Source: Bacillota bacterium (lineage in GTDB: Bacteria; Bacillota; Clostridia; Saccharofermentanales; DTU023). Taken from it: a DNA stretch of 64,000 bases. Positions 7,798-49,972 of the stretch are shown here, piece by piece. Position numbers and translations under genes: made by a program. Positions within the stretch are counted from its first letter, which is position 1. Each line of letters begins with the position of its first letter. The stretch is taken from the NCBI GenBank assembly GCA_023389255.1, contig JAEWER010000028.1:20282-84281 (forward strand), in the 5' to 3' direction. Under the pieces are notes generated by a model that was given only the letters and a program-made list of their open reading frames with translations, was not told the origin of the DNA and ran no database searches.

Positions 7798-7825
7798 TCG
7801 ACGAACTATTTGGTATTTTAGGAAG

Positions 7826-7855
7826 AAAAAAGCTTGTCTTAGTGACAAGCTTTTT
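7826..7855. terminator. Rho-independent terminator between convergent xpt and ribU
   Basis: AAAAAGCTTGTC-ttagt-GACAAGCTTTTT perfect stem with flanking A-run and T-run. Confidence 0.7.
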
Positions 7856-7889
7856 GTGTGGAGTTAATGATTATGACAAACCTACATTT

Positions 7890-8510: not shown

Positions 8511-8531
8511 GTTGCCTCCAATTTTGGGCAT

Positions 8532-34652: not shown

Positions 34653-34718
34653 AGCTTGGTTCTTGTGATTCTGCTTTGTAGCTACGGTGAAAACTGACTC
34701 AGAGAAAGCGGAACTCCC

Positions 34719-34732
34719 TGCAAGCGTTTGCA
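34719..34732. promoter_or_regulatory. LacI-family/cre-like operator TGCAAGCGTTTGCA
   Basis: Near-perfect 14-bp palindrome matching TGNAANCGNWNNCA, in the 380-nt non-coding leader of the inositol locus. Confidence 0.5.
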
Positions 34733-34896
34733 ACATATTTGCCTTTTTATCCTCTGAAAAGTATGTTCTTTTATTTCCTATAACTGGTATATTAGGAATG
34801 CTTATAGTGTCCTAGTAGCGGTAATTTATAAGTTTGACACACAATCCCTTGTGCAATTTACACAAAAATAGATGGGCTATTCTAGTCATATGTTCA

Positions 34897-34925
34897 TTGT
34901 TTGCTACACATTATCTATCTATAAT
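34897..34925 (+). promoter_or_regulatory. Putative sigma-A promoter of the inositol transporter/iolDG unit (TTGTTT-N17-TATAAT)
   Basis: Consensus -10 TATAAT at 34920-34925 and -35 TTGTTT at 34897-34902. Operator-like sites lie immediately downstream. Confidence 0.45.
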
Positions 34926-34963
34926 TGCAACAGGTTGCAAGCGTATTAGCTCATACAAGCAAT

Positions 34964-34977
34964 TGCAAACGCTTGAA
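34964..34977. promoter_or_regulatory. Second operator-like half-palindrome TGCAAACGCTTGAA
   Basis: Shares the TGCAAxCGxTTGxA pattern with 34719-34732 and 40520-40533. Located between the predicted -10 and the RBS of the ABC ATPase gene. Confidence 0.45.
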
Positions 34978-35033
34978 ACGCGTAGAGTAAAGACTGATTA
35001 TCCATTAAGGATATCGGGGAAGAGGAGTTAGCG

Positions 35034-36530
35034 ATGAGTGAATATGTTGTCGAATTGCGAAACATCACTAAGCGTTTCCCCGGTGTGTTAGCGCTCAAGG
35101 ATATGCACATTGCCATTAAGCCAGGTACTATACATGGTTTAATCGGTGAAAATGGTGCGGGTAAATCTACCTTGATTAAAACACTGACCGGCGTGCACAA
35201 GCCAGATACAGGCGAAATAATCGTCAATGGTGAAGTACACAAATTTAAGGACCCCAATGACTCAGCCAAAGCAGGTATTGCCTGTGTGTATCAGGAGCTG
35301 AACATTGAAAAACTACTCAGTATTACCGATAACATTTTTATTAACAAGTGGTTGCGAAAAGGTCCATTGCTTGATTACAAGACCATGCATGAAAAAGCAG
35401 CTGAGGTGATGAAAGATCTAGGTCAGACTGTTGATACGCATAAGGCTGCTGGTACTTTCGGCATGGGTGTCCAACAGATGATCGAAATTGCCAAGGCAAC
35501 CATGATCGATGCCAAGTTGATTATTATGGACGAGCCTACCTCATCTTTAGGAGAAAAAGAGGTAGAACAGTTGATGGCAACTTGTCGTTATCTCAAGAGT
35601 AAGGGTATTGCTATTCTCTTTGTTTCTCACAAACTGGAAGAGTTGTTTGAATTGTGCGATTTGGTCACAGTTATGCGTGATGGTGAACATATCATCACAG
35701 AAGACATCGAAAATATGGATCACGACAAGCTGATCACAGCCATGGTTGGTCGTTCTTTAGAAAATCAATTCCCTAAAGAGTTTGGCACCAGAGGCGAAGT
35801 TGCCTTAGAAGCCAAAGATTTAACTATTGGTGGTGTATTAGACAAGGTCAGCTTTAAAGCCTATAAGGGCGAAATCCTAGGTTTTGCTGGTTTGGTTGGC
35901 GCAGGTCGTACAGAAACGATGCGTGCTATCTTCGGTGCCGATCATCTAGATAGTGGTGAAGTTTATATTCACGGCGAAAAGGTTAGCATTAAAAACCCGG
36001 GTCATGCGGTCAAAAAAGGTATCGCTTTCTTAACGGAAGACCGCAAAGGACAGGGATTGGTTTTACAACAAAGTATTAGGACCAATCTGATCTTAGCTAA
36101 TCTCAAAGGTTTTTCTAACGGACCATTCTTAAACGAGAAGCGGATTGAACAATCTGGTGAGGATAATGTTGCCTCCCTACGTATTAAAACCCCATCGCTT
36201 GACGAGATTGTAGGACAACTTTCTGGTGGCAACCAACAAAAAGTTGTTATCGGTAAGTGGGTTAATACGGATGCACGTATCTTCATTTTTGATGAACCTA
36301 CACGTGGTATTGATGTAGGCGCCAAAATCGAAGTGTACAACGTTATGAACAGCCTGGTTAAAGCTGGACATTGCGTAATTATGATCTCCTCTGAGATGCC
36401 TGAAATCTTAGGTATGAGCGATCGTGTTGTGGTTATGCGTAAAGGTCGCGTCATGGCTACGATCAATCGTGGAGATAAAGAATTTAACCAAGAAGATATT
36501 ATGAGCGCTGCCTGGGGAGGTAAAAAATAA
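35034..36530 (+). CDS. Sugar/inositol ABC transporter ATP-binding protein (CUT2, duplicated ATPase)
   Basis: Two ABC cassettes: Walker A GENGAGKST, and LSGGNQQKV in the second half. RbsA/MglA-like, 498 aa. Confidence 0.9.
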   Translation: MSEYVVELRNITKRFPGVLALKDMHIAIKPGTIHGLIGENGAGKSTLIKTLTGVHKPDTGEIIVNGEVHKFKDPNDSAKAGIACVYQELNIEKLLSITDNIFINKWLRKGPLLDYKTMHEKAAEVMKDLGQTVDTHKAAGTFGMGVQQMIEIAKATMIDAKLIIMDEPTSSLGEKEVEQLMATCRYLKSKGIAILFVSHKLEELFELCDLVTVMRDGEHIITEDIENMDHDKLITAMVGRSLENQFPKEFGTRGEVALEAKDLTIGGVLDKVSFKAYKGEILGFAGLVGAGRTETMRAIFGADHLDSGEVYIHGEKVSIKNPGHAVKKGIAFLTEDRKGQGLVLQQSIRTNLILANLKGFSNGPFLNEKRIEQSGEDNVASLRIKTPSLDEIVGQLSGGNQQKVVIGKWVNTDARIFIFDEPTRGIDVGAKIEVYNVMNSLVKAGHCVIMISSEMPEILGMSDRVVVMRKGRVMATINRGDKEFNQEDIMSAAWGGKK

Positions 36531-37549
36531 TGTTAAAGCAAAATAAATTCTCCAAAATTTTATCGGAGTTGGGAACTCTGCTCGCCCTGATAATTCTCTG
36601 TGTGATTTTAACTATCGCTACTCCTAACTTTCTCAAAGTTGATAACTTGATGAACATCTTAAAGCAGACATCAGTTAATGCTTTGATTTCAGCTGGTATG
36701 TTAGTTTGCTTGATTACTGGTGGTATCGACTTATCAGTAGGTGCTAACGCCATTACTTGTACATGTTTAATGGGTTTGATGTTAACTAAAGGTATTGATA
36801 ATGCAGTAATCATGATTATCGCTGTTCTGGTTTTAGGTACTTTAATTGGTTTCATCAACGGTACCTTGTTAACTCGCTTACATTTACCCCACCCCTTCGT
36901 CTCGACACTGGGTATGAAAAATGTTCTCTCTGGTGTAGCTCTGTTACTGGTCAACTCTAAGATGGTATCAGGCTTCGGTAAAGATATTATGTGGTTGGGT
37001 TCACATTCAGCAGGTAGCTTCACCTATGGTGCTGGCAAACAATTCCCTGGTGTGCCTGTATCGTTCATCTTAGTAATCATTCTCTTCGCCATTATGGGTG
37101 TGTTCTTGAGCAAAACTGCTCTGGGTAGATCAATTTACTGTGTAGGTGGTAACGCTGAAGCAGCTAGACTTTCTGGTATTAATTCCGCTAACGTCTTAAC
37201 TTTCTGCTATGCCTTATCTGGTTTCTTCTGTGCTGTTGCTGGTATCGTTATCGTTGGTCGTACGGGTATCTGTAATGGTGCAAACGCAACTCAGCCCTAC
37301 GAAACTGATGCTATCGCAGCTTGTATCATCGGTGGTGCATCATTCCTAGGTGGTAAAGGAACTATGAGAGGTACCATGATTGGTGCTCTGATTATCTCCG
37401 TTATCAGAAATGGTTTGACCTTGCTTTCCGCCTCATCTGCCATTCAGTTTGTAGTTTTAGGTTTGGTTATCATCTTAGCGGTTCTAATCGATATTACACG
37501 TCAACAATTCGCTGTTAAAGCTCGTCGTCTAGCGATGGCTAGTAAGTAA
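36530..37549 (+). CDS. Sugar/inositol ABC transporter permease (RbsC/BPD_transp_2 family)
   Basis: 10-TM RbsC-like protein (..TGGIDLSVGA.., ..GGNAEAARLSGI..). ATGA-type overlap with the ATPase gene. Confidence 0.9.
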   Translation: MLKQNKFSKILSELGTLLALIILCVILTIATPNFLKVDNLMNILKQTSVNALISAGMLVCLITGGIDLSVGANAITCTCLMGLMLTKGIDNAVIMIIAVLVLGTLIGFINGTLLTRLHLPHPFVSTLGMKNVLSGVALLLVNSKMVSGFGKDIMWLGSHSAGSFTYGAGKQFPGVPVSFILVIILFAIMGVFLSKTALGRSIYCVGGNAEAARLSGINSANVLTFCYALSGFFCAVAGIVIVGRTGICNGANATQPYETDAIAACIIGGASFLGGKGTMRGTMIGALIISVIRNGLTLLSASSAIQFVVLGLVIILAVLIDITRQQFAVKARRLAMASK

Positions 37550-37576
37550 AACAGCTAGTAAGTAGAGGAAATAAAT

Positions 37577-39442
37577 ATGGATTTTCCGAGAATTCGTTTA
37601 ACAATGGCACAAGCCTTAGTCAAATTCATGGATAACCAATATGTTGAATTTGATGGCAAGGAACAAAAGTTTGTGCACGGTGTCTTCGGCATCTTTGGCC
37701 ATGGTTGCGTAACTGGTGTCGGCGAGGCGCTGGAATACATGGATCACGATCTGAAGTTTTATCAAGGTAAAAATGAGCAATCTATGGGTTTAGCTGCCAT
37801 GGCGTACGCTAAACAATTAGATCGTAGAGCCATCATTCCCTGCGTTTCTTCGATTGGTCCTGGTGCCACCAACATGGTAACTGCAGCGGCGTGTGCTACT
37901 GCTAATCGCATCCCGTTGTTGGTATTACCGGGAGACACCTTTGCAACACGTCAACCTGATCCAGTATTACAACAAGCTGAAATTTTCAGCAGTATCGGCA
38001 CCACAGTTAATGATTCATTTCGTGCAGTGTGTCGATATTTTGATCGCATCAATCGTCCTGAGCAATTGATGAGTGCACTGTTGCAAGCTTTCCGTGTATT
38101 GACCGATCCAGCGGAAACAGGAGCTGTCTGCATTGCGATGCCACAAGATGTTGAGGCAGAAGCTTATGATTATCCAGCTTATTTCTTTGAAAAGCGTGTT
38201 TGGCATATGGATCGTCGTCCTTTGGCGGTACCACAAGGTCAACGCTTAGAAGAGCTGATCAAGCAGAGCAAACGTCCACTGATGATTGTTGGTGGTGGTG
38301 TTCGCTACTCAGATGCTGGTGCAGAAGTTGTGAAACTAGCTGAACATTGCCAGATTCCTTTTGCCGAAACACAAGCTGGCAAAGGATTGATTCGTTGGGA
38401 TCATCCGCTAAATATGGGCGGTATCGGTGTAACTGGTACTGAATGCGCAAATTTAGTAGCCCAAAAAGCAGATTTGGTTATTGGCATTGGTACACGTTTC
38501 TCCGATTTCACAACTGCTTCAAAATGGTTATTTAAGAATCCAGAATGCAAATTCATTTCTATCAATGTATGTGGATTTGATTTAGTCAAACTAAATGCTC
38601 ATGGTATTCAAGCTGATGCCAAAGAAGCCTTGCAAGGAATGTATGAATTCTTAAATGACTATCAATCAGCTTATGAAGAAGATGAACTGAAGAACTTAAA
38701 AGAAAATTGGATCAAAGAAGCTAATCGTTTATTTGCTCAGCCTGGTCAAAAATTTAATCAGGTCGCAGCTGTGGGCATTATCAATCAGTTCATGGCAGAT
38801 GAAGATATCGTTTGCTGTGCAGCTGGTAGCTTGCCGGGTGATTTACAGCGTCTGTGGCGTCCAGGCAACAGTCATTCCTACCATGTTGAATATGGCTATT
38901 CCAACATGGGATATGATTTGAATGCTGGTCTGGGTATTAAGCTGGCAGCACCAAATTCTGAAGTGTTTACCATGGTGGGAGATGGTGGCTATTTAATGTT
39001 GAATGCAGAAGTCCATACCATGGTGCAGGAGCGAGCAAAGGTCAATATCATGTTGTTTGACAACATGGGGTGGGGCTGTATTGAAAGCCTGCAAAACAGT
39101 CATGGCGGTAATAGCTACGGTACTTGCTTCCAAGTTAGAAGAGAGGGAGAAGCAGTGCCTAAGGGAGATTTGATTCCTGTTGATTTCGCTATGAATGCTA
39201 GATCGTTAGGGTGTGCAGCCTATACCTGCCATAACGCTGAAGAACTCAAGCAAGCGTTGGTGGACAGCAAGAAAATAACAGATAAACCTGTGCTATTTGA
39301 TATTAAGGTTGACCATGCTTCTATGAGTAAAGGCTATGAATCATGGTGGCGTGTAGGTGTAGCAGAAGTTTCAGAGTCAGAAGAGGTGCGTAAGGCATAC
39401 GCTGACAATGTTGCTCATATTAAACAAACTCGGGATTATTAA
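37577..39442 (+). CDS. iolD: 3D-(3,5/4)-trihydroxycyclohexane-1,2-dione acylhydrolase (ThDP enzyme)
   Basis: IRLTMAQALVKFMDNQYVEFDGKE.KFV.GVFGIFGHG N-terminus and overall length are typical of IolD. GDGGYLM ThDP motif. Confidence 0.9.
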   Translation: MDFPRIRLTMAQALVKFMDNQYVEFDGKEQKFVHGVFGIFGHGCVTGVGEALEYMDHDLKFYQGKNEQSMGLAAMAYAKQLDRRAIIPCVSSIGPGATNMVTAAACATANRIPLLVLPGDTFATRQPDPVLQQAEIFSSIGTTVNDSFRAVCRYFDRINRPEQLMSALLQAFRVLTDPAETGAVCIAMPQDVEAEAYDYPAYFFEKRVWHMDRRPLAVPQGQRLEELIKQSKRPLMIVGGGVRYSDAGAEVVKLAEHCQIPFAETQAGKGLIRWDHPLNMGGIGVTGTECANLVAQKADLVIGIGTRFSDFTTASKWLFKNPECKFISINVCGFDLVKLNAHGIQADAKEALQGMYEFLNDYQSAYEEDELKNLKENWIKEANRLFAQPGQKFNQVAAVGIINQFMADEDIVCCAAGSLPGDLQRLWRPGNSHSYHVEYGYSNMGYDLNAGLGIKLAAPNSEVFTMVGDGGYLMLNAEVHTMVQERAKVNIMLFDNMGWGCIESLQNSHGGNSYGTCFQVRREGEAVPKGDLIPVDFAMNARSLGCAAYTCHNAEELKQALVDSKKITDKPVLFDIKVDHASMSKGYESWWRVGVAEVSESEEVRKAYADNVAHIKQTRDY

Positions 39443-39458
39443 TCCAAAGGAGGATAAA

Positions 39459-40466
39459 GTGATTAAATTAGGTGTTATCGGTACAGGCCGCATCGGTAAA
39501 TTACATGTTGAAAACATCAATAAATTTGTGCCGGATGCAAAGGTCATTGCTGTAGCTGATGTGATGATCGATTACAGCCGTGAATGGGCAAAAGAGCAAG
39601 GCATTGAACATGTCTACCAGGATTACAATGAACTCTTGCAAAATCCTGAAGTAGACGCCGTGGTCGTAGCTACATCCACAGATACCCATGCAACTGTGGC
39701 TATTGCTGCCTGCAAAGCTGGTAAAGACATTTTCTGTGAGAAACCAGTTGATACTTCAGTAGCTAAAATTAAAGAGGTTTTGGCTGCAGTTAAAGAAGCT
39801 GGTGTCAAATTCCAAGTTGGCTTTAACCGTAGATTTGACCACAATTTCCGTCGAGTACGTGAATTTGTAGAAAATGGCACAGTGGGTGAACCGCATCTAT
39901 TGCGTGTTACCAGTCGTGATCCAGCCCCCCCTTCAGTTGAATATATCGCTTCTTCAGGTGGTTTATTCCTAGATATGATGATTCACGACTTTGATATGGT
40001 GCGTTATCTGAGTGGAAGTGAAGTCAAAAAAGTTACTGCGTTTGGTGCAAATCTGATTGATCCAGCAATTGGCAAAGCAGGCGATATCGATACAGCTACT
40101 GTGACTTTGGAACTAGAAAATGGTGCACTAGCTGTTATTGATAACAGTCGTCAAGCGGTTTATGGCTATGACCAAAGAGTGGAAGTATTTGGCTCCAAAG
40201 GTGTAGCGCAAGCGTTTAATGACAAGCCTTCTAATGTGGAGGTTTCAACGGCTGATGCAGTAACCACCGATAAAATCCGCTATTTCTTCTTAGATCGCTA
40301 TACGGGTGCCTTTGTTGATCAATTTGTCAGCTTTATCAAGGCGCTGAAAGGCGAAGCTGAAGTTCCGGTTGATGCTCTAGATGGTTTGCGTGCAGTAGAG
40401 GTTGCTTTAGCAGCAACTGAGTCACTGCGTTCAGGTAAAACCATCACCATGGAATACGATCAATAA
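39459..40466 (+). CDS. iolG: myo-Inositol 2-dehydrogenase (Gfo/Idh/MocA)
   Basis: IKLGVIGTGRIGKLH Rossmann fold, EKP motif (FCEKPV) and GFNRRFD. GTG start at 39459 with AAAGGAGG RBS; the track ORF start overlaps the end of iolD. Confidence 0.85.
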   Translation: MIKLGVIGTGRIGKLHVENINKFVPDAKVIAVADVMIDYSREWAKEQGIEHVYQDYNELLQNPEVDAVVVATSTDTHATVAIAACKAGKDIFCEKPVDTSVAKIKEVLAAVKEAGVKFQVGFNRRFDHNFRRVREFVENGTVGEPHLLRVTSRDPAPPSVEYIASSGGLFLDMMIHDFDMVRYLSGSEVKKVTAFGANLIDPAIGKAGDIDTATVTLELENGALAVIDNSRQAVYGYDQRVEVFGSKGVAQAFNDKPSNVEVSTADAVTTDKIRYFFLDRYTGAFVDQFVSFIKALKGEAEVPVDALDGLRAVEVALAATESLRSGKTITMEYDQ

Positions 40467-40471
40467 AAATA

Positions 40472-40507
40472 AGCGAATTGTAACAGTTATAGCTGTTGCA
40501 ATTCGCT
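40472..40507 (+). terminator. 15-bp stem-loop after iolG (terminator-like or RNA-stability hairpin, no 3' U-tract)
   Basis: AGCGAATTGTAACAG-ttatag-CTGTTGCAATTCGCT with a single G-U wobble. Followed by AAAATAATC rather than a T-run. Confidence 0.6.
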
Positions 40508-40519
40508 AAAATAATCTAT

Positions 40520-40533
40520 AGCAAACGTTTGAA
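40520..40533. promoter_or_regulatory. Operator-like palindrome AGCAAACGTTTGAA upstream of iolE
   Basis: Contains the perfect 10-bp palindrome CAAACGTTTG. Same motif family as the two sites in the locus leader. Lies 19 nt upstream of the iolE ATG. Confidence 0.5.
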
Positions 40534-40551
40534 ACGTTAAGTGAGGTAGCT

Positions 40552-41448
40552 ATGTTAGCAAAAGACAAAGTACATTTAGGAATTGCTCCGATCGGTTGGA
40601 CAAATGATGATATGCCCGATCTCGGCAAAGAAAACACATTTGAACAATGTGTAAGTGAAATGGCGTTGGCAGGATTTACAGGTTCAGAGGTTGGCAATAA
40701 ATATCCCAAAGATCCAGCTGTCTTAAAGCCTATGCTTGATATTCGTGGTATGAGAATAGCCAACCAATGGTTTTCATCGTTGCTGACATCAGAGCCTTAT
40801 GAAGTGACTATTGAGAACTTCAAAAAACAACTTGAATTTCTTAAAGCTATGGGCGCTAAGGTAATCGGTGCTTCAGAGCAAGGAAATTCTATTCAAGGTA
40901 AACAAATTCCTATTTTAGGTGAGCAAAAACCTGTCTTTACTGATGAGCAATGGCAACTCATTGCTAAAGGTATGAACGAAATGGGCAAAATTGCTCGTGA
41001 TATGGGCATGACTCTAACGTACCATCACCATATGGGCACAGGCATTCAAACCATGGCAGAGGTAGACAAATTTTTGGAGCTGACTGATCCGGAATTAGTT
41101 TTCCTGCTGTATGATACAGGGCATTTTGCTTTCTCAGGTGAAGATCATGTGGTTGCCGTTGAACGCTACATGCCGCGAATTAAGCACGTGCACTTGAAAG
41201 ACATTCGTAGTTCAGTCATCGAGCAAGTGAGAAAAGAAAATAAGAGCTTCTTAGAGGCTGTGCGTATGGGTGCATTTACAGTACCTGGTGATGGCGATTT
41301 GGACTTCAAGCCTGTGTTTGAGGTGCTAGAAAAGAATAATTACAGTGGTTGGATGATTGTAGAAGCAGAGCAAGATCCAGCCAAAGCGAATCCTTTTGAA
41401 TACGCAGTAAAAGCGCGCAAGTTCATCCGCGAAAATACTGGTTTATAA
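40552..41448 (+). CDS. iolE: Inosose (2-keto-myo-inositol) dehydratase
   Basis: LGIAPIGWTNDDMPDLG...YHHHMGTGIQT...FTVPGDGDLDFKPVF...VEAEQDPAKANP is nearly collinear with Bacillus IolE. Confidence 0.9.
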   Translation: MLAKDKVHLGIAPIGWTNDDMPDLGKENTFEQCVSEMALAGFTGSEVGNKYPKDPAVLKPMLDIRGMRIANQWFSSLLTSEPYEVTIENFKKQLEFLKAMGAKVIGASEQGNSIQGKQIPILGEQKPVFTDEQWQLIAKGMNEMGKIARDMGMTLTYHHHMGTGIQTMAEVDKFLELTDPELVFLLYDTGHFAFSGEDHVVAVERYMPRIKHVHLKDIRSSVIEQVRKENKSFLEAVRMGAFTVPGDGDLDFKPVFEVLEKNNYSGWMIVEAEQDPAKANPFEYAVKARKFIRENTGL

Positions 41449-41459
41449 CACAGGTCATT

Positions 41460-42527
41460 ATGGTCACGATTAAAGACATTGCCGAAAAAGCTGGTGTTTC
41501 TTACTCAACAGTTTCTCGTTCGTTGAACGATTATGCAGGAACTAATGATGAAACTAAGAAACGCATTAAAGAGTTAGCTAAGCAAATGGGCTACGAGCCT
41601 AACGATATCGCACGTTCTTTGGTGACCAGAAGATCAAATACTGTTGGTTTTGTTTTACCCGATATTGCGAATCCTTTCTTTGCTGATATTTTGTCTGCCA
41701 TCAATGAGATAGCAGAAATGCATGGATTTAACACTCTGGTTTGTAGTACGGGATGGAATGCTGATAAAGAATTACAAGCCCTAAAAATGCTCTCGTCTAA
41801 GCGGGTGGATGGCATAGTTTTATACCCCGCCCGCTTGATCGAGGACGATCGCTTAGAAGTGATCAAACCTCCGGTCATAGTGATGGGCAGACCGTATGAT
41901 CCAGAAAAGAATAGGATCAAATGTGTGGAAGTAGATAATGATAAAGGCGCACGTTTAGCTATAGATCATTTGGTGGCCAGTGGCTACAGCAGAATAGCTT
42001 ATTTAGGTGGACCGAATCATTCTCTTTCCAACATTATTCGCAAACAAGCTTTTGCAGATGAGCTAATCAAAAAGCAGTTCGCTTGTAACGAAGAGTGGAT
42101 TAGCGACGGAGAATACACCATTGATAGTGGTTGTGAGCGTGCTAGAACGTTGCTTAAGCAGACTTCTAAAAACGCAAAACAACTACCAGATGCGCTACTC
42201 TGTGCCAACGATATGATCGCTTTGGGAGCGATGCAAGCAGTTGAAGAACTAGGGTTTAAGTTAGGCAAAGATATCGCAGTGATGGGTTTTGATGATGTTC
42301 AATATGCTTCTTTACCTCAGATACAGCTCTCTACTATCAGCATCCCACGTTTTGAATTAGGACGTATCTCTATGCAGATGCTGATAGAGGCGATAGAACA
42401 GCAACCAATAGATAAAGCAGGACGTACCAACAATTCTAAGTACAATCTTGCGTTACAACAGGAAGTCAAAGGTTATAGAGTTTTGCTCTATCCAGAATTA
42501 ATCGTACGTAAAACAACAGTAAAGTAG
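41460..42527 (+). CDS. LacI-family transcriptional regulator
   Basis: N-terminal HTH (VTIKDIAEKAGVSYSTVSRSLN) and a periplasmic-binding-protein-like sugar-binding core. Confidence 0.9.
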   Translation: MVTIKDIAEKAGVSYSTVSRSLNDYAGTNDETKKRIKELAKQMGYEPNDIARSLVTRRSNTVGFVLPDIANPFFADILSAINEIAEMHGFNTLVCSTGWNADKELQALKMLSSKRVDGIVLYPARLIEDDRLEVIKPPVIVMGRPYDPEKNRIKCVEVDNDKGARLAIDHLVASGYSRIAYLGGPNHSLSNIIRKQAFADELIKKQFACNEEWISDGEYTIDSGCERARTLLKQTSKNAKQLPDALLCANDMIALGAMQAVEELGFKLGKDIAVMGFDDVQYASLPQIQLSTISIPRFELGRISMQMLIEAIEQQPIDKAGRTNNSKYNLALQQEVKGYRVLLYPELIVRKTTVK

Positions 42528-42536
42528 GTATTTAGA

Positions 42537-43799
42537 GTGCAATACACAGTAGCCATAGGAGAAAGAAAGCAGTCTGTCGAAATTCCTGAAGAATTAGTTT
42601 TGGCAGTTCTGGAGCAAAATGAGGTTCAGGTTGAACTCACTGGAGCTGATGCTGTAAGCCAAGCTATCAACAACCCTATAGGTAGTCCTAAACTGGAAGA
42701 AATCATCAAACCGGGTGAGAAGATTGCCATCATTACTTCAGATTTGACTAGACCGATACCTTCATACATCGTGTTGCCACCATTACTTGAGCGATTACGC
42801 AAAATTGGTTGTGCTAATGAAGACATAGTTATTGTGTTTGCTTTAGGATCACACCGTAAGCAGACTGAAGCAGAGATGCGTAAATTGGTAGGGGACCAAG
42901 TTTACGATAATTATCGCTGTGAGGATGGAGATATCGATGATGTGGTGCACATGGGCACTACAAGTAGTGGCACACCAGTTGATGTTTGTCGCACGGTTGC
43001 CGAAGCTGATCGCAGAATTTGTTTGGGCAATATTGAATACCACTACTTTGCTGGTTACAGTGGAGGTGCAAAGGCGATTATGCCTGGTGTTTCCACCAGA
43101 GCTGCGATTCAAGCTAATCACAGCATGATGGTTAGAGATACTGCAACTACTGGTAATGTTGATCACAACCCTGTACGTGATGATTTAGAAGAAGCGATCA
43201 ACTATTGTCCTATAGATTTTATTGTCAATGTGGTTCTCGATGAACACAAAAAAATTATTCATGCCGTGGCTGGTCACTTTATCACTGCTCATCGTAGCGG
43301 TTGTAAGTTCCTGGATAGCCTTTATCTCAAACCTATTGCTAAACGTGCAGATATTGTTATCTGTTCACAAGGTGGCAAACCGAAAGATTTGAATTTGTAT
43401 CAAACACAAAAGGCACTGGACAATGCTAAAAATGCGGTGCGTGACGGAGGCATCATAATTTTGGTGGGTTCTTGTCAGGAAGGATTAGGCGAAGGAGTTT
43501 TTGAACGTTGGATGTTGGAACATGATGAATCGTCCAGCATGATCAGTGATATTCAAAAACACTTTGAGCTAGGAGGGCATAAAGCCGCCGCGATTGCGAT
43601 GGTATTACAACGTGCTCGTATTTTCTTAGTTTCAGATATGGAGCATGAATTTGTCAGACGAATTTTTATGACTCCGTTCAACACAGTCCAAGAAGCCTAT
43701 GATCAGGCGAAAAAAGAGCTAGGAGAGCAAAGTGAAGTCATTATCATGCCGTATGGAGGTTCGACATTACCGCGCTGCCTAGCTGACAAAGATAAATAA
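42537..43799 (+). CDS. LarA-family nickel-pincer-nucleotide-dependent 2-hydroxyacid racemase/epimerase homolog
   Basis: DUF2088/LarA fold, 420 aa. Retains ALGSHR (His108-equivalent), EYHYFAGYSGGAK (His174 and cofactor-tethering Lys184 equivalents) and QANH (His200-equivalent). Confidence 0.85.
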   Translation: MQYTVAIGERKQSVEIPEELVLAVLEQNEVQVELTGADAVSQAINNPIGSPKLEEIIKPGEKIAIITSDLTRPIPSYIVLPPLLERLRKIGCANEDIVIVFALGSHRKQTEAEMRKLVGDQVYDNYRCEDGDIDDVVHMGTTSSGTPVDVCRTVAEADRRICLGNIEYHYFAGYSGGAKAIMPGVSTRAAIQANHSMMVRDTATTGNVDHNPVRDDLEEAINYCPIDFIVNVVLDEHKKIIHAVAGHFITAHRSGCKFLDSLYLKPIAKRADIVICSQGGKPKDLNLYQTQKALDNAKNAVRDGGIIILVGSCQEGLGEGVFERWMLEHDESSSMISDIQKHFELGGHKAAAIAMVLQRARIFLVSDMEHEFVRRIFMTPFNTVQEAYDQAKKELGEQSEVIIMPYGGSTLPRCLADKDK

Positions 43800-43833
43800 T
43801 GAGCTCAGCTCAAGTGATATGTAGGAGGTTCAC

Positions 43834-44868
43834 ATGTCAAAGGTAAAAGTAGGTGTAGCAGGTTATGGTGTCATTGGCCAAAGATTGGCTGATGGCGTTG
43901 CTCGTCAACAAGATATGGAATTAGTTGGTATTGCAGATATTGCTCCCACTTTATCCATTCGCGCTTTACATGAAAAAGGCATGCCTTATGATCTATATTT
44001 GGTCGATGGCGCTAAAAAAGAGGATTTTGAGAAATACGGCATCCCCACTAAAGGAAGTTTCGAAGATTTGGTCAACCAAGTTGATATCATGCTAGATTCT
44101 TCACCTGGTGGTGTTGGTATCAAAAATAAAGAGTTGTATGAACGCCTAGGCAAGAAAGCCATCTTCCAAGGTGGCGAATGCAATGAGGTAGCAGATGTCT
44201 TCTTCCACGGCTATGCTAACTTTGAGAAAGGTTTAGATCAAAAATATCTGAAGCTGACTTCTTGTAATACCACTGGTCTGATTCGTTCAGTGGATTGCTT
44301 AGATCGTGCTTATGGTATTAGCAATGTAGCTATCACCATTGTTCGACGTGTAGCCGATCCTGGCGATTACCACCGTGGATTAACCAATGCTTTGCGCATT
44401 GACAAGGCTCCCAGCCATCAAGCAGTAGACTTGATGACTATCATGCCTCATGTAGAAGCAACAGGTATCTTAATCCATACACCTGTCACCCATGGTCATA
44501 TCATTACAGTCGTAGCTAAAGGTAAAGAAAAAATTACCAAAGAGATGGCTTTAGAGGCTTTTGCTAAACACGATCGTATTCGTTTGGTTTCAATCGATGA
44601 AGGCTTCTTAGGTAACGCATCTCTATTCCGCTATGCTCGTGATTTAGGTAATCCTCGTGGCGATATGTATGAAATCGCTATCTGGAAAGATTCAATTGTT
44701 GAAACAGGCGATGGTATCATGTACGCCATCAATATTCCTCAAGAAGCAGTTACTATTCCTGAAACTATGGACGCAATTCGCGCAGCCACTGGTATGCAAA
44801 ATTCCCGTGAAGAAGGAACTGCTAAAACCAATGAATATTTAGGTTTAGGAAAATGGAAAAACAAATAA
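43834..44868 (+). CDS. Type II (archaeal-type) glyceraldehyde-3-phosphate dehydrogenase family protein
   Basis: Collinear with archaeal GAPDH: VGVAGYGVIGQRLAD, active-site SCNTTGL, IVRRVADP. 344 aa. Strong AGGAGG RBS. Confidence 0.85.
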   Translation: MSKVKVGVAGYGVIGQRLADGVARQQDMELVGIADIAPTLSIRALHEKGMPYDLYLVDGAKKEDFEKYGIPTKGSFEDLVNQVDIMLDSSPGGVGIKNKELYERLGKKAIFQGGECNEVADVFFHGYANFEKGLDQKYLKLTSCNTTGLIRSVDCLDRAYGISNVAITIVRRVADPGDYHRGLTNALRIDKAPSHQAVDLMTIMPHVEATGILIHTPVTHGHIITVVAKGKEKITKEMALEAFAKHDRIRLVSIDEGFLGNASLFRYARDLGNPRGDMYEIAIWKDSIVETGDGIMYAINIPQEAVTIPETMDAIRAATGMQNSREEGTAKTNEYLGLGKWKNK

Positions 44869-46088
44869 AGTCTTATAAAGAATTTTCTTATGCTGGGCGC
44901 AGAGTTCTTCTGCGTCTAGATATTAATTCTCCTTTAGATCCTAAGACCAAGCAAATTACCGATACTACTCGTATCGATAAAAGTTTGTCCACAGTTAATT
45001 ACCTGCTGGAACAAGGAGCTAAAGTAGCTATCATTGCGCACCAAGGCGATACTTTGGACTATCAGAATTTATATCCATTAGCCGAGCACGCCAAGATTCT
45101 AAGCGAAAAGACTGGTCGCAAAGTAGACTATATCGATGATGTATGTGGACCAGCTGCCATTGCTAAGATCAAGGAACTCTCAGATGGTGAGGCGATTATT
45201 TTAGGCAATTTGCGCTACTTAGCCGAAGAAATTTCTACTTTTGAAACAGTGGTTAAGTTGACTCCGCAAGAGATGACTAAAACTTGGCTAATTCGTAGCT
45301 TAAGCGAGCACTTTGATTACTATGTCAATGATGCCTTTTCCGCTGCGCATCGTGCTTGTCCCTCGATGGTTGCTTTCCAAGAAGTGTTACCATCGGCTGC
45401 TGGTGAATTATTCTTTGCTGAATATTCAGCGCTCAACAACGTGCTCAAACAGCCACAACATCCATCGGTATTTGTGCTCGGGGGCGCCAAAATTTCTGAT
45501 GCCTTTGGCATGATGGAACAGGTTCTAGTTAACGGTACTGCCGATAAAATTTTAACAACTGGCGTTACTGGCGTAGTGTTTCTGTTAGCTCAAGGTAAGA
45601 GCATTGGTAGTAAGTATGAGCAGTGGTTGCGAGATCGTAAGTTGTTGGACTTTGTTGAACCGGCAAAACGTTATTTGGAAGAATATGCCGGTAAAATCGA
45701 GGCTCCAGTCGACTTAGCGTACGCACAAAATGATGAAAGAAAAGAGTTAGATATTGCCCAACTACCCATGGACGATGCAATGTTCCTGGATATAGGCAGT
45801 GCTACAATAGAAAAGTATCAAGAGATTATTCAATCGGCGGCAACATTGTTTGTCAATGGCCCTGCTGGTGTCTACGAAGATCCGTTATTTGTTAAAGGTA
45901 CAGAAGCTCTCTGGCAAGCTATCGCAAAAGCGCCAGGACACTCTGTTATCGGTGGCGGAGATACCGTACAAGCTGCAGGCAAGTTTATTGATCTGACTGA
46001 CATAGGTTATGTCTGTACAGCGGGCGGTGCCATGGTCAGATTTATGACAGGCAAAAAACTTCCTCTGATTGAAGCGATGGAGAAATAA
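44853..46088 (+). CDS. Archaeal-type phosphoglycerate kinase family protein with an altered substrate motif
   Basis: RLDINSPLDPKTKQITDTTRI...GAKVAIIAHQGD...GNLRY..EE and the C-terminal GGGDT pattern. 411 aa. Overlaps the GAPDH-like gene by 16 nt. Confidence 0.8.
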   Translation: MEKQIKSYKEFSYAGRRVLLRLDINSPLDPKTKQITDTTRIDKSLSTVNYLLEQGAKVAIIAHQGDTLDYQNLYPLAEHAKILSEKTGRKVDYIDDVCGPAAIAKIKELSDGEAIILGNLRYLAEEISTFETVVKLTPQEMTKTWLIRSLSEHFDYYVNDAFSAAHRACPSMVAFQEVLPSAAGELFFAEYSALNNVLKQPQHPSVFVLGGAKISDAFGMMEQVLVNGTADKILTTGVTGVVFLLAQGKSIGSKYEQWLRDRKLLDFVEPAKRYLEEYAGKIEAPVDLAYAQNDERKELDIAQLPMDDAMFLDIGSATIEKYQEIIQSAATLFVNGPAGVYEDPLFVKGTEALWQAIAKAPGHSVIGGGDTVQAAGKFIDLTDIGYVCTAGGAMVRFMTGKKLPLIEAMEK

Positions 46089-46939
46089 TGATGGATAAAT
46101 CACAGAAATTTTCATTAGAAAAATTTGCTGCTGAGATTCGTCTGCACACCACTAAAGAAGTTGTAAAACGTGGCTTTGGCCACTTAGGCGGATCTCTTTC
46201 AGTAGTTGATGCTTTGGCTGTTTTATACGGCAAGCAACTAAAATGCGATCCCAAGAATCCTAAAGATCCTGATCGTGATTATTTAGTGATGAGCAAAGGT
46301 CATGCGGGTCCCGCAGTTTATGCAACACTGGCTCTCAAAGGCTTTTTCCCCATTGAAGAGCTGGAAACTTTGAACCAACCAGGCACAAATTTGCCCAGCC
46401 ATTGTGACCGCAATAAGACAATCGGTGTAGATGCTACCACTGGTTCCTTAGGACAAGGTTCATCTCAAGCCTGTGGTATCGCTTTAGGCAACAAATTAGC
46501 TGGCAGACAAAATTATACCTATCTGTTCACCGGTGATGGTGAGAGTAACGAAGGACAAATTTGGGAAGCCGCCTTGTTTGCCAGTCAACAAAAACTGGAT
46601 CATCTGATTTGGTTTGTTGATTACAACCGTAAGCAACTTGATGGTGCTACCGATGAAGTCATGAGTATGGGTTCCATTGTTGATAAGTTTAAAGCTTTTG
46701 GATTTCATGCTGTGGAAGTAGATGGACACGATGTTTGCGCAATTGATGATGCCATCGAGCAAGCTAAACAAGTTAAGGATCAACCTTCTTGCATCGTCTT
46801 GAACACCATTAAGGGTAAGGGTTTAGACGAACTAGAGAAGATGGCATTGAATCACCATATCGCCATCGATGAAGCTTTCGGCAAATCATCAGTGGCATTC
46901 TTTGAGGAAGCTTTAGCCACAATGAAGGAGGAAGCCTAA
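46088..46939 (+). CDS. Transketolase, N-terminal (PP-domain) subunit
   Basis: SKGHAGPAVYA and ThDP motif GDGESNEGQIWEA...DYNRKQLDG. 283 aa, split-type. Confidence 0.9.
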   Translation: MMDKSQKFSLEKFAAEIRLHTTKEVVKRGFGHLGGSLSVVDALAVLYGKQLKCDPKNPKDPDRDYLVMSKGHAGPAVYATLALKGFFPIEELETLNQPGTNLPSHCDRNKTIGVDATTGSLGQGSSQACGIALGNKLAGRQNYTYLFTGDGESNEGQIWEAALFASQQKLDHLIWFVDYNRKQLDGATDEVMSMGSIVDKFKAFGFHAVEVDGHDVCAIDDAIEQAKQVKDQPSCIVLNTIKGKGLDELEKMALNHHIAIDEAFGKSSVAFFEEALATMKEEA

Positions 46940-47913
46940 TGTTTAAAGTTATCTACGATGGTACTGCCGAGCAGAAGGCACACAAGAATGTATACGCTGA
47001 TACAATTGAGCAATTAGCCAGTGAAGATAAAGATGTAATTTATCTGGATGCTGATTTGATGAATTCAGCTGGTACTTATAAATTCTGGAAAGAGCATCCC
47101 GACCAAGCCATTAACTGTGGTATTGCGGAAGCAAATATGATGGGCGTAGCTGCTGGCTTATCTTTAGTTGGCAGAAAACCATATGTACATACTTTTGGAC
47201 CTTTTGCGTCACGCAGATGTTATGATCAAACTTTTTTAAGTGTTGGTTATTCCAAAAACAGTGTGCGTATTTTTGGTTCTGATCCTGGTGTGGCTGCAGC
47301 TTTCAATGGTGGTACGCATATGCCTTTTGAAGATATGGCGCTGATGCGTGCAATTCCAGAGTCACATGTTTTTGATTTGGCAGATGGCGTGCAATTTGCT
47401 TGGACTTTACGTGCAGTCAAAGACTTATCTGGCGTAGTCTACATGCGTAGTACCCGCAAGAATTACAAAAAGATCTATGCAGAGGATTCAACTTTCGAGA
47501 TTGGTAAAGGCAATGTCCTCCGTGAAGGTACCGATTTAACAATCATTGCTTGTGGCTTGATGGTTGGTGAAGCGATGGAAGCAGCTGAGATGCTAGAAAA
47601 GGAAGGTATTTCAGCACGTGTTGTTGATATGTTTACAGTAAAACCCTTAGATGCAGAATTAGTTTGCGAATCTGCCAAGAAAACGGGTTGTATTGTTACA
47701 GCTGAAAATCACAATATTATCGGCGGTCTAGGCGAAGCTGTTGCTTCTGCTTTGGCTGGTGGTTGCAAAGCATGTCGTGGTGTAGCCTTTAAGAAGCATG
47801 GTGTTACCGATCGTTTTGGTGAAGTTGGACCTGTTGACTACCTGCAAGAAGTTTATGGCTTAACGGCAAAAGCGTTAGTAGAAACATGTAAACAAGCATT
47901 AGCTGAAAAGTAG
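46939..47913 (+). CDS. Transketolase, C-terminal (Pyr + C-terminal domain) subunit
   Basis: DADLMNS...GIAEANMMGVAAGL...GGTHMPFEDMALMRAIP. 324 aa. ATG overlaps the upstream stop (TAATG). Confidence 0.9.
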   Translation: MFKVIYDGTAEQKAHKNVYADTIEQLASEDKDVIYLDADLMNSAGTYKFWKEHPDQAINCGIAEANMMGVAAGLSLVGRKPYVHTFGPFASRRCYDQTFLSVGYSKNSVRIFGSDPGVAAAFNGGTHMPFEDMALMRAIPESHVFDLADGVQFAWTLRAVKDLSGVVYMRSTRKNYKKIYAEDSTFEIGKGNVLREGTDLTIIACGLMVGEAMEAAEMLEKEGISARVVDMFTVKPLDAELVCESAKKTGCIVTAENHNIIGGLGEAVASALAGGCKACRGVAFKKHGVTDRFGEVGPVDYLQEVYGLTAKALVETCKQALAEK

Positions 47914-47914
47914 T

Positions 47915-47943
47915 GCCGAGCGAGCTTCGCTCGGCTTTTTTTG
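47915..47943 (+). terminator. Strong rho-independent terminator after the transketolase genes
   Basis: GCCGAGCG-agctt-CGCTCGGC followed by T8. Confidence 0.85.
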
Positions 47944-47951
47944 AGGGAATT

Positions 47952-48752
47952 ATGTATATCGAAAAAGAGCTACATCCTGGCTATAACGAATATTTAAGTT
48001 TGGATGTTGAAAACGGATATGGTAGCTGGATGGATGTCGGTTTGCTCATCTTGCAAGCTGGTGACAGCTACACTTTTGCTGAAACAGAAAAAGAAGTTTC
48101 TTGGATTTTAATGCAAGGCAAGGCTGTTGCTGAATTCGATGGACAAAATGTAGAGATGGATCGTCCCAATCCCTTTGCATACAATCCATGGTGTTTATTG
48201 ATGTCTAAGAATCATAGCTGCACTGTAACTGCAATATCAGACTGTGAATTCTACGTACAAAAATCCTATAACGACAAGGAATATGCAACGCATCTTTATA
48301 CTGATCAGGAAACTGATACTTGGCATCGTGGAGATAAAGGTGAATTAGGAGACTGCATTCGTCGTGATGTCAGAACTTGTTATGACTATGAGACTAGACC
48401 CGACTCCAACATGGTCTTGGGTGAAGTGGTAAATTTACCAGGCAAATGGTCAAGTTATCCGCCCCACAATCATCCACAACCAGAAGTATATTTCTATTTC
48501 TTTGAAAAGGAGCAAGGTTTTGGTGCAGGGTGGGCAGATAATCGTCCATATGAATTGCATCATCATGGGTGTTTAGTGATTACTGATGAAGTTACACACT
48601 CACAAGTTATGGCGCCAGGTTATGCTTGTTGTTATACCTGGGGTATTCGTCATCTACCAGGTAATCCTTGGGAAAAAACAAGAATAGATGATCCTAAACA
48701 CGAATGGCTTTTAGCAGAAAATCCTCAATACTGGGATCAACCTAAACAATAG
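47952..48752 (+). CDS. iolB: 5-Deoxy-glucuronate isomerase
   Basis: Cupin with the GKWSSYPPHNH signature and a ..DDPKHEWLL C-terminus, as in Bacillus IolB. I moved the start to the ATG at 47952 (GAGGGA RBS) because the track ORF start lies inside the terminator. Confidence 0.85.
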   Translation: MYIEKELHPGYNEYLSLDVENGYGSWMDVGLLILQAGDSYTFAETEKEVSWILMQGKAVAEFDGQNVEMDRPNPFAYNPWCLLMSKNHSCTVTAISDCEFYVQKSYNDKEYATHLYTDQETDTWHRGDKGELGDCIRRDVRTCYDYETRPDSNMVLGEVVNLPGKWSSYPPHNHPQPEVYFYFFEKEQGFGAGWADNRPYELHHHGCLVITDEVTHSQVMAPGYACCYTWGIRHLPGNPWEKTRIDDPKHEWLLAENPQYWDQPKQ

Positions 48753-48784
48753 AATCATGTGCAATTGCACTGAAAGGTAAATTT

Positions 48785-49972
48785 ATGGCAGAAAAAATAA
48801 ATTACGCTGAGATGTCATTAGCAAAACATCAAGAGTGGAAGGGAAAGATTGAAGTTATCGCTACTTGTCCTGTTTCCAGCAAACACGAATTAGCTTTAGC
48901 ATACACGCCAGGCGTTGCTGAACCTTGTTTGCAGATTCAGAAGGATGTTGATAAATCCTACGAGTTAACACGCAGACACAACTTAGCCTTGGTAGTTACA
49001 GATGGTAGTGCTGTTTTAGGTCTTGGAGATATTGGGCCTGAGGCAGGCATGCCTGTTATGGAAGGTAAATGTGCTCTGTTTAAAGCATTTGGTGATGTAG
49101 ATGCTTTCCCCTTATGCGTTAAATCACAAGACGTAGATACAATAGTAGAAACCATCTATCAAATTTCGGGCAGTTTTGCTGGCGTGAATTTAGAAGATAT
49201 TGCAGCTCCGCGTTGTTTTGAAATTGAAGAGCGCCTAAAAGCTAAATGCGATATCCCCATTTTCCACGATGATCAACATGGTACGGCTGTTGTAACTTTG
49301 GCTGGCTTAATCAATGCCTTGAAGATCGTAGGCAAAAAGATGGATGAGATCAAAGTCGTTATGAATGGCGCAGGTGCAGCTTCGATTGCTATTAGCAAAT
49401 TGTTGTTATCAGCCGGTGTAAAAGATCTTATTTTGTGCGATCGCAAAGGGGTAATTTATAAAGGTCGTACCGAGGGCATGAATAAGTATAAAGAGCAGAT
49501 GGCAGAGATTAGTAATCCACGTCAAATCAAAGGCTCTTTAGCTGATGCTCTAGTGGGTGCTGATGTGTTTGTTGGCGTATCAGCTGCTGGCGCAGTTTCT
49601 CAAGATATGGTTCGTTCAATGAATAAAGATGCTATCGTTTTCGCTTGTGCCAACCCCATTCCAGAAATCTATCCAGACGAAGCTAAAGAAGCTGGTGCCG
49701 CTGTTACAGCAACAGGCAGATCAGACTTCGCTAACCAAATCAATAATGTTTTAGCATTCCCAGGTATTTTCCGCGGAGCATTTGATGTGCGTGCTAAGGA
49801 CATTAACCAAGAAATGAATGTGGCAGCAGCTCATGCTATCGCCTCACTAGTTGGGGATGATGAATTAAATCCTGAGCACATCATGCCAGATGCTTTTGAT
49901 CCAAGAGTTAAAGAAGTAGTGGCTAAAGCGGTAGCAGAGGCAGCTATTAAGACAGGCGTGAATCGTATCTAA
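48785..49972 (+). CDS. NAD(P)-dependent malic enzyme (short type)
   Basis: LAYTPGVAEPC, VVTDGSAVLGLGDIG, FAGVNLEDI..P.CF, FHDDQHGTA and GAGAA dinucleotide motifs. Confidence 0.9.
   Translation: MAEKINYAEMSLAKHQEWKGKIEVIATCPVSSKHELALAYTPGVAEPCLQIQKDVDKSYELTRRHNLALVVTDGSAVLGLGDIGPEAGMPVMEGKCALFKAFGDVDAFPLCVKSQDVDTIVETIYQISGSFAGVNLEDIAAPRCFEIEERLKAKCDIPIFHDDQHGTAVVTLAGLINALKIVGKKMDEIKVVMNGAGAASIAISKLLLSAGVKDLILCDRKGVIYKGRTEGMNKYKEQMAEISNPRQIKGSLADALVGADVFVGVSAAGAVSQDMVRSMNKDAIVFACANPIPEIYPDEAKEAGAAVTATGRSDFANQINNVLAFPGIFRGAFDVRAKDINQEMNVAAAHAIASLVGDDELNPEHIMPDAFDPRVKEVVAKAVAEAAIKTGVNRI

Follow-up and report, generated by a model that had tools for sequence, protein, structure and literature searches.

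A GAPDH and PGK paralog pair in a transketolase-type inositol operon, and a proposed route through D-malyl-1-phosphate to D-malate and ATP

The window analysed here, a stretch of 64,000 nucleotides from a member of the Saccharofermentanales (contig JAEWER010000028.1), is an ordinary chromosomal region in which rho, prfA, dnaB, ftsH and rplU-rpmA-obg are present. Between trkAH and rplU it contains a gene string on a single strand (35034-49972), an inositol-degradation operon that holds a paralog of glyceraldehyde-3-phosphate dehydrogenase (GAPDH) and a paralog of phosphoglycerate kinase (PGK). Based on the analysis of this pair and its relatives, we propose, with a probability of about 0.7, that the two proteins are part of a transketolase-dependent variant of myo-inositol catabolism that would make D-malate and ATP. 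The features of the operon, in positions of the window, are the following.

35034-36530, + strand: sugar ABC transporter ATPase, first gene of the operon (two Pfam ABC_tran domains; about 540 bits to NCBIfam monosaccharide ABC ATPases, below their cutoffs)
36530-37549, + strand: sugar ABC transporter permease (Pfam BPD_transp_2; similar to ribose permease)
37577-39442, + strand: IolD, 3D-(3,5/4)-trihydroxycyclohexane-1,2-dione acylhydrolase (TIGR04377, 884 bits, cutoff 715)
39459-40466, + strand: IolG, inositol 2-dehydrogenase (TIGR04380, 458 bits, cutoff 355)
40552-41448, + strand: IolE, myo-inosose-2 dehydratase (TIGR04379, 421 bits, cutoff 290)
41460-42527, + strand: LacI-family repressor (Pfam LacI and Peripla_BP_1/3)
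42537-43799, + strand: nickel-pincer malate racemase of the LarAH6/Mar2 family (NF052593, 577 bits, cutoff 500)
43834-44868, + strand: type II (archaeal-type) GAPDH paralog (NF003251, TIGR01546 and archaeal PDB matches)
44853-44868, + strand: overlap of 16 nt between the stop of the GAPDH paralog and the start of the PGK paralog (from the coordinates of the open reading frames, ORFs)
44853-46088, + strand: archaeal-type PGK paralog (Pfam PGK; best PDB match archaeal)
45036-45053, + strand: AHQGDT, aa 62-67 of the PGK paralog, with Asp66 at the Arg65 position (PDB alignment)
46088-46939, + strand: N-terminal, ThDP-binding subunit of a split transketolase (Pfam Transketolase_N, 171 bits)
46939-47913, + strand: C-terminal subunit of the split transketolase, with pyrimidine-binding and C-terminal domains (Pfam Transket_pyr and Transketolase_C)
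47952-48752, + strand: divergent IolB-like cupin isomerase (Pfam KduI/IolB, 143 bits; TIGR04378, 86 bits, cutoff 205)
48785-49972, + strand: small NAD(P) malic enzyme, last gene before rplU (Pfam malic and Malic_M)

Like the Bacillus-type myo-inositol pathway (IolG, E, D, B, C, J, A), the operon has the upper half of the route, namely IolG, IolE and IolD together with an isomerase of the IolB family. Unlike that pathway, it carries within 35034-49972 no IolC kinase, IolJ aldolase or IolA malonate-semialdehyde dehydrogenase detectable by family-model scans, and in place of iolC, iolJ and iolA stand the split transketolase, the GAPDH and PGK paralogs, the LarAH6 racemase and the malic enzyme. 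No second PGK and no type I GAPDH were found within the window.

The original prediction had described the product of the first gene of the pair as a type II GAPDH of the archaeal kind rather than a bacterial GapA, and the family models agree, as the 344-aa ORF at 43834-44868 scores 401 bits on NF003251 ('type II GAPDH', cutoff 185), 293 bits on TIGR01546 (cutoff 233) and just 18 bits on the GapA model PRK15425. Its PDB sequence matches are archaeal GAPDHs only (2czc, 1cf2, 1b7g and 2yyy), and SCNTT (aa 143-147) and VRRVADP (aa 170-176) are present. The archaeal PGK length and motifs claimed for the second product were likewise found: the 411-aa ORF at 44853-46088 matches Pfam PGK (PF00162) with 359 bits over residues 9-401, was aligned full length to 46 PDB PGK sequences, among which P. 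horikoshii PGK (2cun) is the best match with 284 bits and the Thermotoga enzyme reaches 197 bits, and contains RLDINSP, TDTTRI, GNLRY and AAHRA. The predicted 16-nt overlap of the two ORFs is also as described (ATGGAAAAACAAATAA, 44853-44868). NCBIfam release 20 contains no model specific to either paralog.

At the PGK motif for which the original prediction had given H-x-G-R-P, the paralog reads AHQGDT (aa 62-67), a segment whose alignment is unambiguous, each column pairing with THQGKP in 2cun and with SHLGRP in the Thermotoga enzyme. The replacement of Arg thus stands, although the 'R-P' of the motif is really Arg or Lys followed by a variable residue (archaeal AHQGR[P/K]; Lys in Pyrococcus). 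The same hexapeptide occurs in 120 of the 120 closest database homologues (62-100% identity; Clostridia, Spirochaetia, Victivallales, Bacteroidota and others) and in 76 ORFs from 80 fetched genome loci, and is therefore a clade signature and not the result of chance or sequencing noise. At 60% identity or more, this clade is spread across many bacterial phyla. In an exhaustive HMMER search of 1.84 billion representatives clustered at 50% identity it shrinks to little more than a single cluster (57% identity) with some fragments (49-66%), and the next full-length PGK representatives beyond it share at most 45% identity. Of the approximately 125 nearest full-length representatives, 107 have Arg at the Arg65-equivalent position, 2 have Lys and 6 have Asp. 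A search with a profile built from the nearest Arg-type representatives yielded 118 PGKs, every one of which (118/118) reads AHQGR[P/K/R] and among which nearly all that are taxon-named belong to the Bathyarchaeia. The idea that GDT might be common in archaeal PGKs, raised earlier as an objection, fails on the Arg in these 118 sequences. The archaeal type of the pair is borne out by the nearest solved structures, which are archaeal, and by the nearest named Arg-type PGKs being those of Bathyarchaeia; the old horizontal acquisition that the original prediction had suggested may have taken place.

Five of the nearest outgroups also lack the Arg, namely P0123, P0127, P0128, P0130 and P0140 (with AHQGDP, THQGSD, SHQGDS, SHQGSD and GHQGSM among them), and these five have the one-residue insertion of the clade as well. 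P0123 (locus L087) lies adjacent to a convergent type II GAPDH gene, with two aldehyde:ferredoxin oxidoreductase genes near. The genes around P0123 and P0128, the paralogs next in similarity, gave no clear pathway, and further re-purposed PGK paralog families may exist.

Positions of the PGK paralog were taken as clade-specific if their conservation within the clade is 95% or higher and Arg-type PGKs share them to no more than 5%. These are D66, T67, L68, the inserted Y70, N72, L73, G118, Y122, an insertion at 128-134, Q176, G219, M220, C388, L405 and M409. Most of them, both insertions included, lie in the substrate-binding N-domain, and the series from T67 to the 128-134 insertion is fixed throughout the clade and missing from Arg-type PGKs. 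With the archaeal PGKs (P. horikoshii 2CUN; Bathyarchaeia) the paralog shares the two-domain build and the length class, and it retains D23 and N25 (2-hydroxyl), R40 (reacting carboxyl), H63, R121 and R167 as well as the nucleotide motifs GGAKISD (aa 210-216), GGGDT (aa 367-371) and NGPAGVYE (in common with archaeal PGKs as GGAK, GGGD and NGP.G), in which G210, G211, A212, K213, G367, G368, G369 and D370 are invariant in a 21-sequence clade alignment. Unlike the archaeal enzymes, it has Asp66 in place of the 3-phosphate-binding Arg or Lys, and its gene is located in catabolic operons beside a malate racemase. In pig PGK, the 3-phosphate accepts hydrogen bonds from Arg65, Arg122 and Arg170, and the bond to the bridging oxygen comes from His62 (PMC7729029). 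This basic patch is incomplete in the paralog, where His63, Arg121 and Arg167 are present and position 66 is Asp, and the loss of one of the three arginines with retention of the other two would fit a shorter, monoanionic tail.

For the GAPDH paralog, 68 clade sequences were compared with 120 archaeal ones (Thermococcales, Sulfolobales and Methanobacteriales), using M. fervidus numbering. As in the archaeal type II GAPDHs (M. fervidus 1CF2, P. horikoshii 2CZC and S. solfataricus 1B7G), with which the paralog is collinear and whose equivalog cutoffs it exceeds, the catalytic residues are kept, with Ser139, Cys140, Asn141, Thr142, Arg167, Arg168, His193 and His219 retained in the clade (68/68 for Cys140, His219 and Arg167/Arg168). 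Unlike them, the clade has Gln instead of His at position 194 (Gln in 68/68 vs His in 120/120 archaeal sequences) and Asp instead of Lys at position 33 (every member vs every archaeal sequence), and R136K, V137L, V138T, H221I and H299P are likewise fixed. According to a 2025 review, Ser139, Asn141, Arg167, His193 and His194 form one phosphate site, Arg167 and Arg168 bind the phosphate of glyceraldehyde-3-phosphate (GAP), and Lys33 is tied to NADP use (PMC12041015). The inorganic phosphate site is thus incomplete in the clade, where His194 is replaced by Gln and the other four residues are retained. The paralog therefore seems to have kept both the phosphorylating chemistry and the anion-binding Arg pair and is, from the change of Lys33 to Asp, probably NAD-dependent.

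The gene neighbourhood of the pair was compared across related genomes. A scan with the clade signatures, with one genome per species, yielded at least 497 loci with a relative of the PGK paralog, and the window's own species, known from metagenome contigs only, is missing from this species-representative collection, where the best match has 69% identity. Neighbourhoods were counted in 80 of these loci with 10-kb flanks, in a survey by ORF, BLAST and clustering that covers more than 10 phylum-level taxon names. Of the 80 loci, 70 have an ORF for the GAPDH paralog. Sixty-three loci have the two genes on the + strand and no more than 600 nt apart; 42 of these show an overlap (modal lengths 10, 13 and 16 nt) and all but six have either an overlap or a gap of at most 15 nt. 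Transketolase genes occur in 44 of the 80 loci and iol genes in 38, the two together in 33, and transketolase without iol genes in 11. A malate enzyme is encoded in 44 loci, the malate racemase in 35 and malic enzyme in 21. Seven loci carry a decarboxylating tartrate/D-malate dehydrogenase (TIGR02089, 521 bits, cutoff 470), and in all seven both the racemase and malic enzyme are missing, so that two unrelated routes from D-malate to pyruvate replace each other beside the pair. Motifs of PfkB, class II aldolase and aldehyde dehydrogenase (ALDH) are practically absent from the iol-bearing loci, as a motif scan of the 80 loci, which is crude, gave a PfkB signature in two, ALDH in one locus without iol genes, and FBA_II in none. 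Cultured bacteria in which the full cluster occurs include Fonticella tunisiensis DSM 24455 (L058), Clostridium ganghwense (L054), C. peptidivorans (L062), C. tanneri (L085) and Pelosinus sp. (L080), and CP002116, OY782041 and OZ245791 are examples of complete genomes that carry the pair.

The pair also occurs in other settings. In Sediminispirochaeta smaragdinae (L004; CP002116.1, 8902-13821) the GAPDH paralog, the PGK paralog, LarA and malic enzyme are encoded together with no iol or transketolase genes, and this module is divergent from a cluster for a GntP permease, a PEP-mutase-family protein, GntR, a 2-hydroxyacid dehydrogenase, an FGGY kinase and a class II aldolase; the LarA proteins of the related Sediminispirochaeta loci L013, L016, L022 and L027 have 32-34% identity to the racemase of the window. 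Three copies of the pair are found in one Spirochaetia genome (OY782041.1; L021, L025 and L040), in different sugar-transport and transketolase contexts and in L021 with two tandem split transketolases, and two copies in each of three other genomes (L026/L053, L029/L048 and L061/L078). In L009, from a Saccharofermentanales metagenome-assembled genome (MAG), a canonical type I GAPDH (7577-8653; Gp_dh_N and Gp_dh_C, 212 bits) with SNASCTTNCLAP and WYDNEWGYS is located directly upstream of the string of type II GAPDH, PGK paralog, racemase and transketolase, and the locus comes after glycine-cleavage genes. The suggestion that the pair might be the only gap and pgk of its genome thus fails for the relatives, in view of the type I GAPDH of L009 and the genomes in which the pair is present two or three times. 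In a spirochaete MAG (L023, 9938-12484), an ORF of 848 aa joins the PGK paralog (Pfam PGK, 360 bits) to LarA (Lar_N and LarA_C); as a single case among the 76 AHQGDT ORFs, it could be a real fusion or an indel or assembly error in the MAG.

In nine loci (L023, L031, L048, L060, L033, L049, L064, L074 and L016), a gene for an aldolase of the HpcH/GarL type, which scores 237 bits to 2-dehydro-3-deoxyglucarate aldolase and is thereby below the cutoff, lies upstream of the pair, and a protein of the Asp/Glu-racemase family of about 220 aa is encoded directly downstream. Genes near the pair in these loci include creatininase-family, URO-D-like, SnoaL-like, Ldh_2, fucose-isomerase-like, aldehyde:ferredoxin oxidoreductase, KduI-family and TRAP-transporter genes, and L033, L049 and L064 also carry the racemase and malic enzyme.

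Taking gene content, residue patterns and neighbourhood conservation together, we propose the following route, of which all substrates and products, as well as the acceptor of the transketolase and the cofactor, are predicted. IolG, IolE and IolD would open the ring to give 5-deoxy-D-glucuronate, which the IolB-like isomerase would convert to 2-deoxy-5-keto-D-gluconate (DKG). In place of phosphorylation by IolC and aldol cleavage by IolJ, the split transketolase would then take a C2 ketol unit off DKG, presumably with GAP as the acceptor to form xylulose-5-phosphate, and would release (R)-3-hydroxy-4-oxobutanoate, i.e. D-malate semialdehyde. The GAPDH paralog is proposed to be a phosphorylating D-malate semialdehyde dehydrogenase that uses NAD+ and phosphate to turn this aldehyde into D-malyl-1-phosphate. 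The PGK paralog would act as a D-malyl-1-phosphate:ADP phosphotransferase that makes ATP by passing the acyl phosphate to ADP, leaving D-malate. The nickel-dependent racemase would convert the latter to L-malate and the malic enzyme would yield pyruvate and CO2. Asp66 and the other changes in the N-domain would reshape the 3-phosphate pocket for a shorter, singly charged carboxylate.

The stereochemistry of DKG is in line with such a scheme. Turned round in the Fischer projection, DKG is HOCH2-CO-CHOH(L)-CHOH(D)-CH2-COO-, a D-threo 2-ketose, which is the configuration of transketolase donors, and the derived product of ketol cleavage, OHC-CHOH(D)-CH2-COO-, is an analogue of D-glyceraldehyde-3-phosphate with CH2-COO- for CH2-OPO3. 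Because the aldehyde from this cleavage would have the D configuration, the malate formed would be D-malate, for which a racemase or a dehydrogenase specific to that enantiomer would be needed. Compared with the IolC/IolJ route, one ATP would be saved and one gained, so that, unlike in the Bacillus-type pathway, ATP is predicted to be gained rather than spent and the C4 part to end as pyruvate instead of acetyl-CoA. The non-glycolytic substrate of the original prediction, including its idea of D-malate and malyl phosphate, thus finds support in the invariant Asp, the clustering of changes in the N-domain and the ties to transketolase, iol and D-malate genes. Two other assignments were considered for this operon and set aside, namely action of the GAPDH paralog on 5-deoxy-glucuronate itself and a tartrate route via 5-keto-gluconate, both of which are a misfit with IolE/IolD (deoxy product), the malic enzyme and the racemase.

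Several observations weigh against the proposed pathway. All of its substrates were assigned by deduction, and Asp66 alone would not be decisive for a changed substrate, because Arg65 mutants of yeast PGK stay active. With Arg167/Arg168 kept and the equivalog cutoff for type II GAPDH passed, activity of the GAPDH paralog on GAP is possible. In every transketolase-type cluster tested, the IolB-like protein reaches just 86-108 bits (102-108 bits on TIGR04378 in three other clusters, L054, L058 and L080), far under the IolB cutoff of 205, and for this reason its product is perhaps not DKG and the isomerase step is less certain. In addition, 18 of the 80 loci have no linked gene of any kind within 10 kb, and in the nine loci where the pair stands beside the HpcH-type aldolase and the Asp/Glu-racemase-family protein, a different aldehyde, e.g. 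tartronate semialdehyde, could be the substrate. As a separate observation, the IolB-like proteins fall into two sub-groups, with 59-74% and 34-42% identity to the protein of the window, and those of the transketolase-type clusters may constitute a distinct isomerase subfamily.

Some of these points would favour another explanation, in which the pair is an ordinary archaeal-type GAPDH and PGK that handles GAP and 1,3-bisphosphoglycerate from the transketolase/pentose-phosphate side, with Asp66 tolerated much as the loss of Arg65 is in the yeast mutants. Such a glycolytic role would agree with the NCBIfam equivalog cutoffs exceeded by the GAPDH paralog, the full-length Pfam PGK match, the retention of all catalytic residues together with Arg167/Arg168 of the GAPDH and R40, H63, R121 and R167 of the PGK, and the fact that GAP and xylulose-5-phosphate do figure in transketolase chemistry. 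However, it would account neither for Asp66 and the N-domain block, which are fixed in the clade and occur in none of the 118 Bathyarchaeia-type PGKs, nor for the link to D-malate-specific enzymes and their mutual replacement, and it would leave the C4 acid aldehyde with no other enzyme, as the crude motif scan found no ALDH in the clusters. Two or three copies of the pair per genome in some cases, inside LacI-controlled catabolic operons, and the canonical type I GAPDH that adjoins the pair in L009 also speak against it, and we consider it improbable.

An alternative that we regard as unlikely is that the pair is a module for substrate-level phosphorylation acting on a 2-hydroxy aldehyde other than, or not only, D-malate semialdehyde, with tartronate semialdehyde, tartrate semialdehyde, sulfolactaldehyde, unphosphorylated D-glyceraldehyde and 5-deoxy-D-glucuronate as candidates. 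The HpcH/GarL-like aldolase before the pair in nine loci would release pyruvate and a C3 aldehyde, the creatininase-, URO-D-, Ldh_2- and fucose-isomerase-like genes of the same loci and the 11 loci with transketolase and without iol genes would suit such a range, and tartrate is also epimerised by LarAH6 (PMC11770544). On the other hand, the window and the 33 loci with iol and transketolase genes can make one aldehyde only, the 3-deoxy C4 acid aldehyde. Malate is indicated by malic enzyme and D-malate dehydrogenase, the racemase and malic enzyme are found even in three of the HpcH-type loci (L033, L049 and L064), and the AHQGDTLDY pocket is common to all contexts. We consider it highly improbable that the pair runs reductively, forming the semialdehyde from D-malate via malyl phosphate, and feeds transketolase-dependent synthesis. 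Both enzyme families are reversible and archaeal type II GAPDH is typically gluconeogenic, which would speak for that direction, but the uptake transporter, the LacI repressor, the catabolic iolG/E/D genes and the decarboxylating malic enzyme of the operon, as well as the change of Lys33 to Asp, which suggests NAD over NADPH, are at odds with it.

The proposed pathway shares elements with known systems. In the sulfo-TK pathway for sulfoquinovose and in the system with apulose-4-phosphate transketolase, a split transketolase in a catabolic operon takes C2 from a non-standard ketose; unlike there, the donor here would be a deoxy-keto sugar acid and the aldehyde would then be used for substrate-level phosphorylation. 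A malate kinase, malyl phosphate and a malate semialdehyde dehydrogenase are the elements of a synthetic 2,4-dihydroxybutyrate pathway, built from aspartate kinase and aspartate semialdehyde dehydrogenase and described as non-natural (PMC5481828, PMC12104201). That route acts reductively on C4 of L-malate (via 2-hydroxy-4-oxobutanoate), whereas the one proposed here would be natural, oxidative and directed at C1 of D-malate, with GAPDH and PGK folds. In the literature searched, malyl-phosphate chemistry has so far been engineered only, with other enzymes and another regiochemistry. The founder of the LarAH6 family was assayed as a malate racemase (PMC7583248), and the LarAH6/Mar2 racemase and the DmlA-type D-malate dehydrogenase are the downstream partners of the pair in the loci analysed here. 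The papers on Mar2 give malic enzyme only as the gene context of LarAH6 and no physiological source of D-malate (PMC7583248, PMC11770544), and their supplements list '3-phosphoglycerate kinase' as context of LarA group 4, without comment. A search of the full-text literature, with subscription-only papers outside its reach, returned no description of a transketolase-dependent inositol route, of natural malyl phosphate or of a function for the pair. The 'novel inositol pathway' of Dysosmobacter (PMC13311982) was considered as a precedent and rejected, since it uses a kinase and an aldolase and hence is a different route.

Some further features of the operon concern its boundaries and regulation. 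The longest ORF of iolG starts at 39408 (35-nt overlap with iolD), and the public gene call starts at 39459 (335 aa). A strong terminator-like hairpin, GCCGAGCGAGCTTCGCTCGGC followed by TTTTTTT (47915-47935, + strand; 9 bp with 7 GC pairs), lies directly 3' of the stop of the transketolase C-terminal subunit and 5' of the IolB-like gene. This position implies that the latter starts at the ATG at 47952, which the public gene call also uses, rather than at the GTG at 47913, and the operon may be split or attenuated there. The 14-nt near-palindrome TTGCAAACGCTTGC occurs three times, at 34720-34733 (- strand), 34963-34976 (+ strand) and 40521-40534 (- strand), with 0, 1 and 2 mismatches. All three copies are intergenic, two of them 5' of the first operon gene, where one overlaps a promoter-like site, and one between iolG and iolE. 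They are tentative candidates for operators of the LacI-family regulator, given that three or more matches also arose in 5 of 100 shuffles. The transporter region (34652-37549) encodes the ATPase and the permease, and a gene for a substrate-binding protein is absent from the operon; such a protein (cluster 13, Peripla_BP_4) is encoded just 5' of the ATPase in 10 related loci.

On balance, we lean towards the view that the conversion of D-malate semialdehyde through D-malyl-1-phosphate to D-malate and ATP is a natural, widespread and overlooked form of substrate-level phosphorylation, carried out by neofunctionalised archaeal-type paralogs. Its substrate would come from an inositol-catabolic branch that uses transketolase, and probably from further sugar-acid pathways too, and the conversion would supply the physiological role of Mar2. 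If this is true, the malyl-phosphate kinase step would join the short list of direct substrate-to-ATP reactions in fermenting bacteria, and the highly conserved GAPDH and PGK would together have been adapted to a substrate that carries no phosphate. Inositol is a common plant and gut nutrient, and the route would be a more energy-efficient way to use it anaerobically, with no kinase step and one ATP gained. In addition, bacterial D/L-malate racemase would have a reason, with a source of D-malate for Mar2, and natural malyl-phosphate enzymes would be at hand for metabolic engineers. The labels 'glyceraldehyde-3-phosphate dehydrogenase' and 'phosphoglycerate kinase' would then be corrected for these paralogs (at least 497 related loci), where they can mislead metabolic reconstructions.

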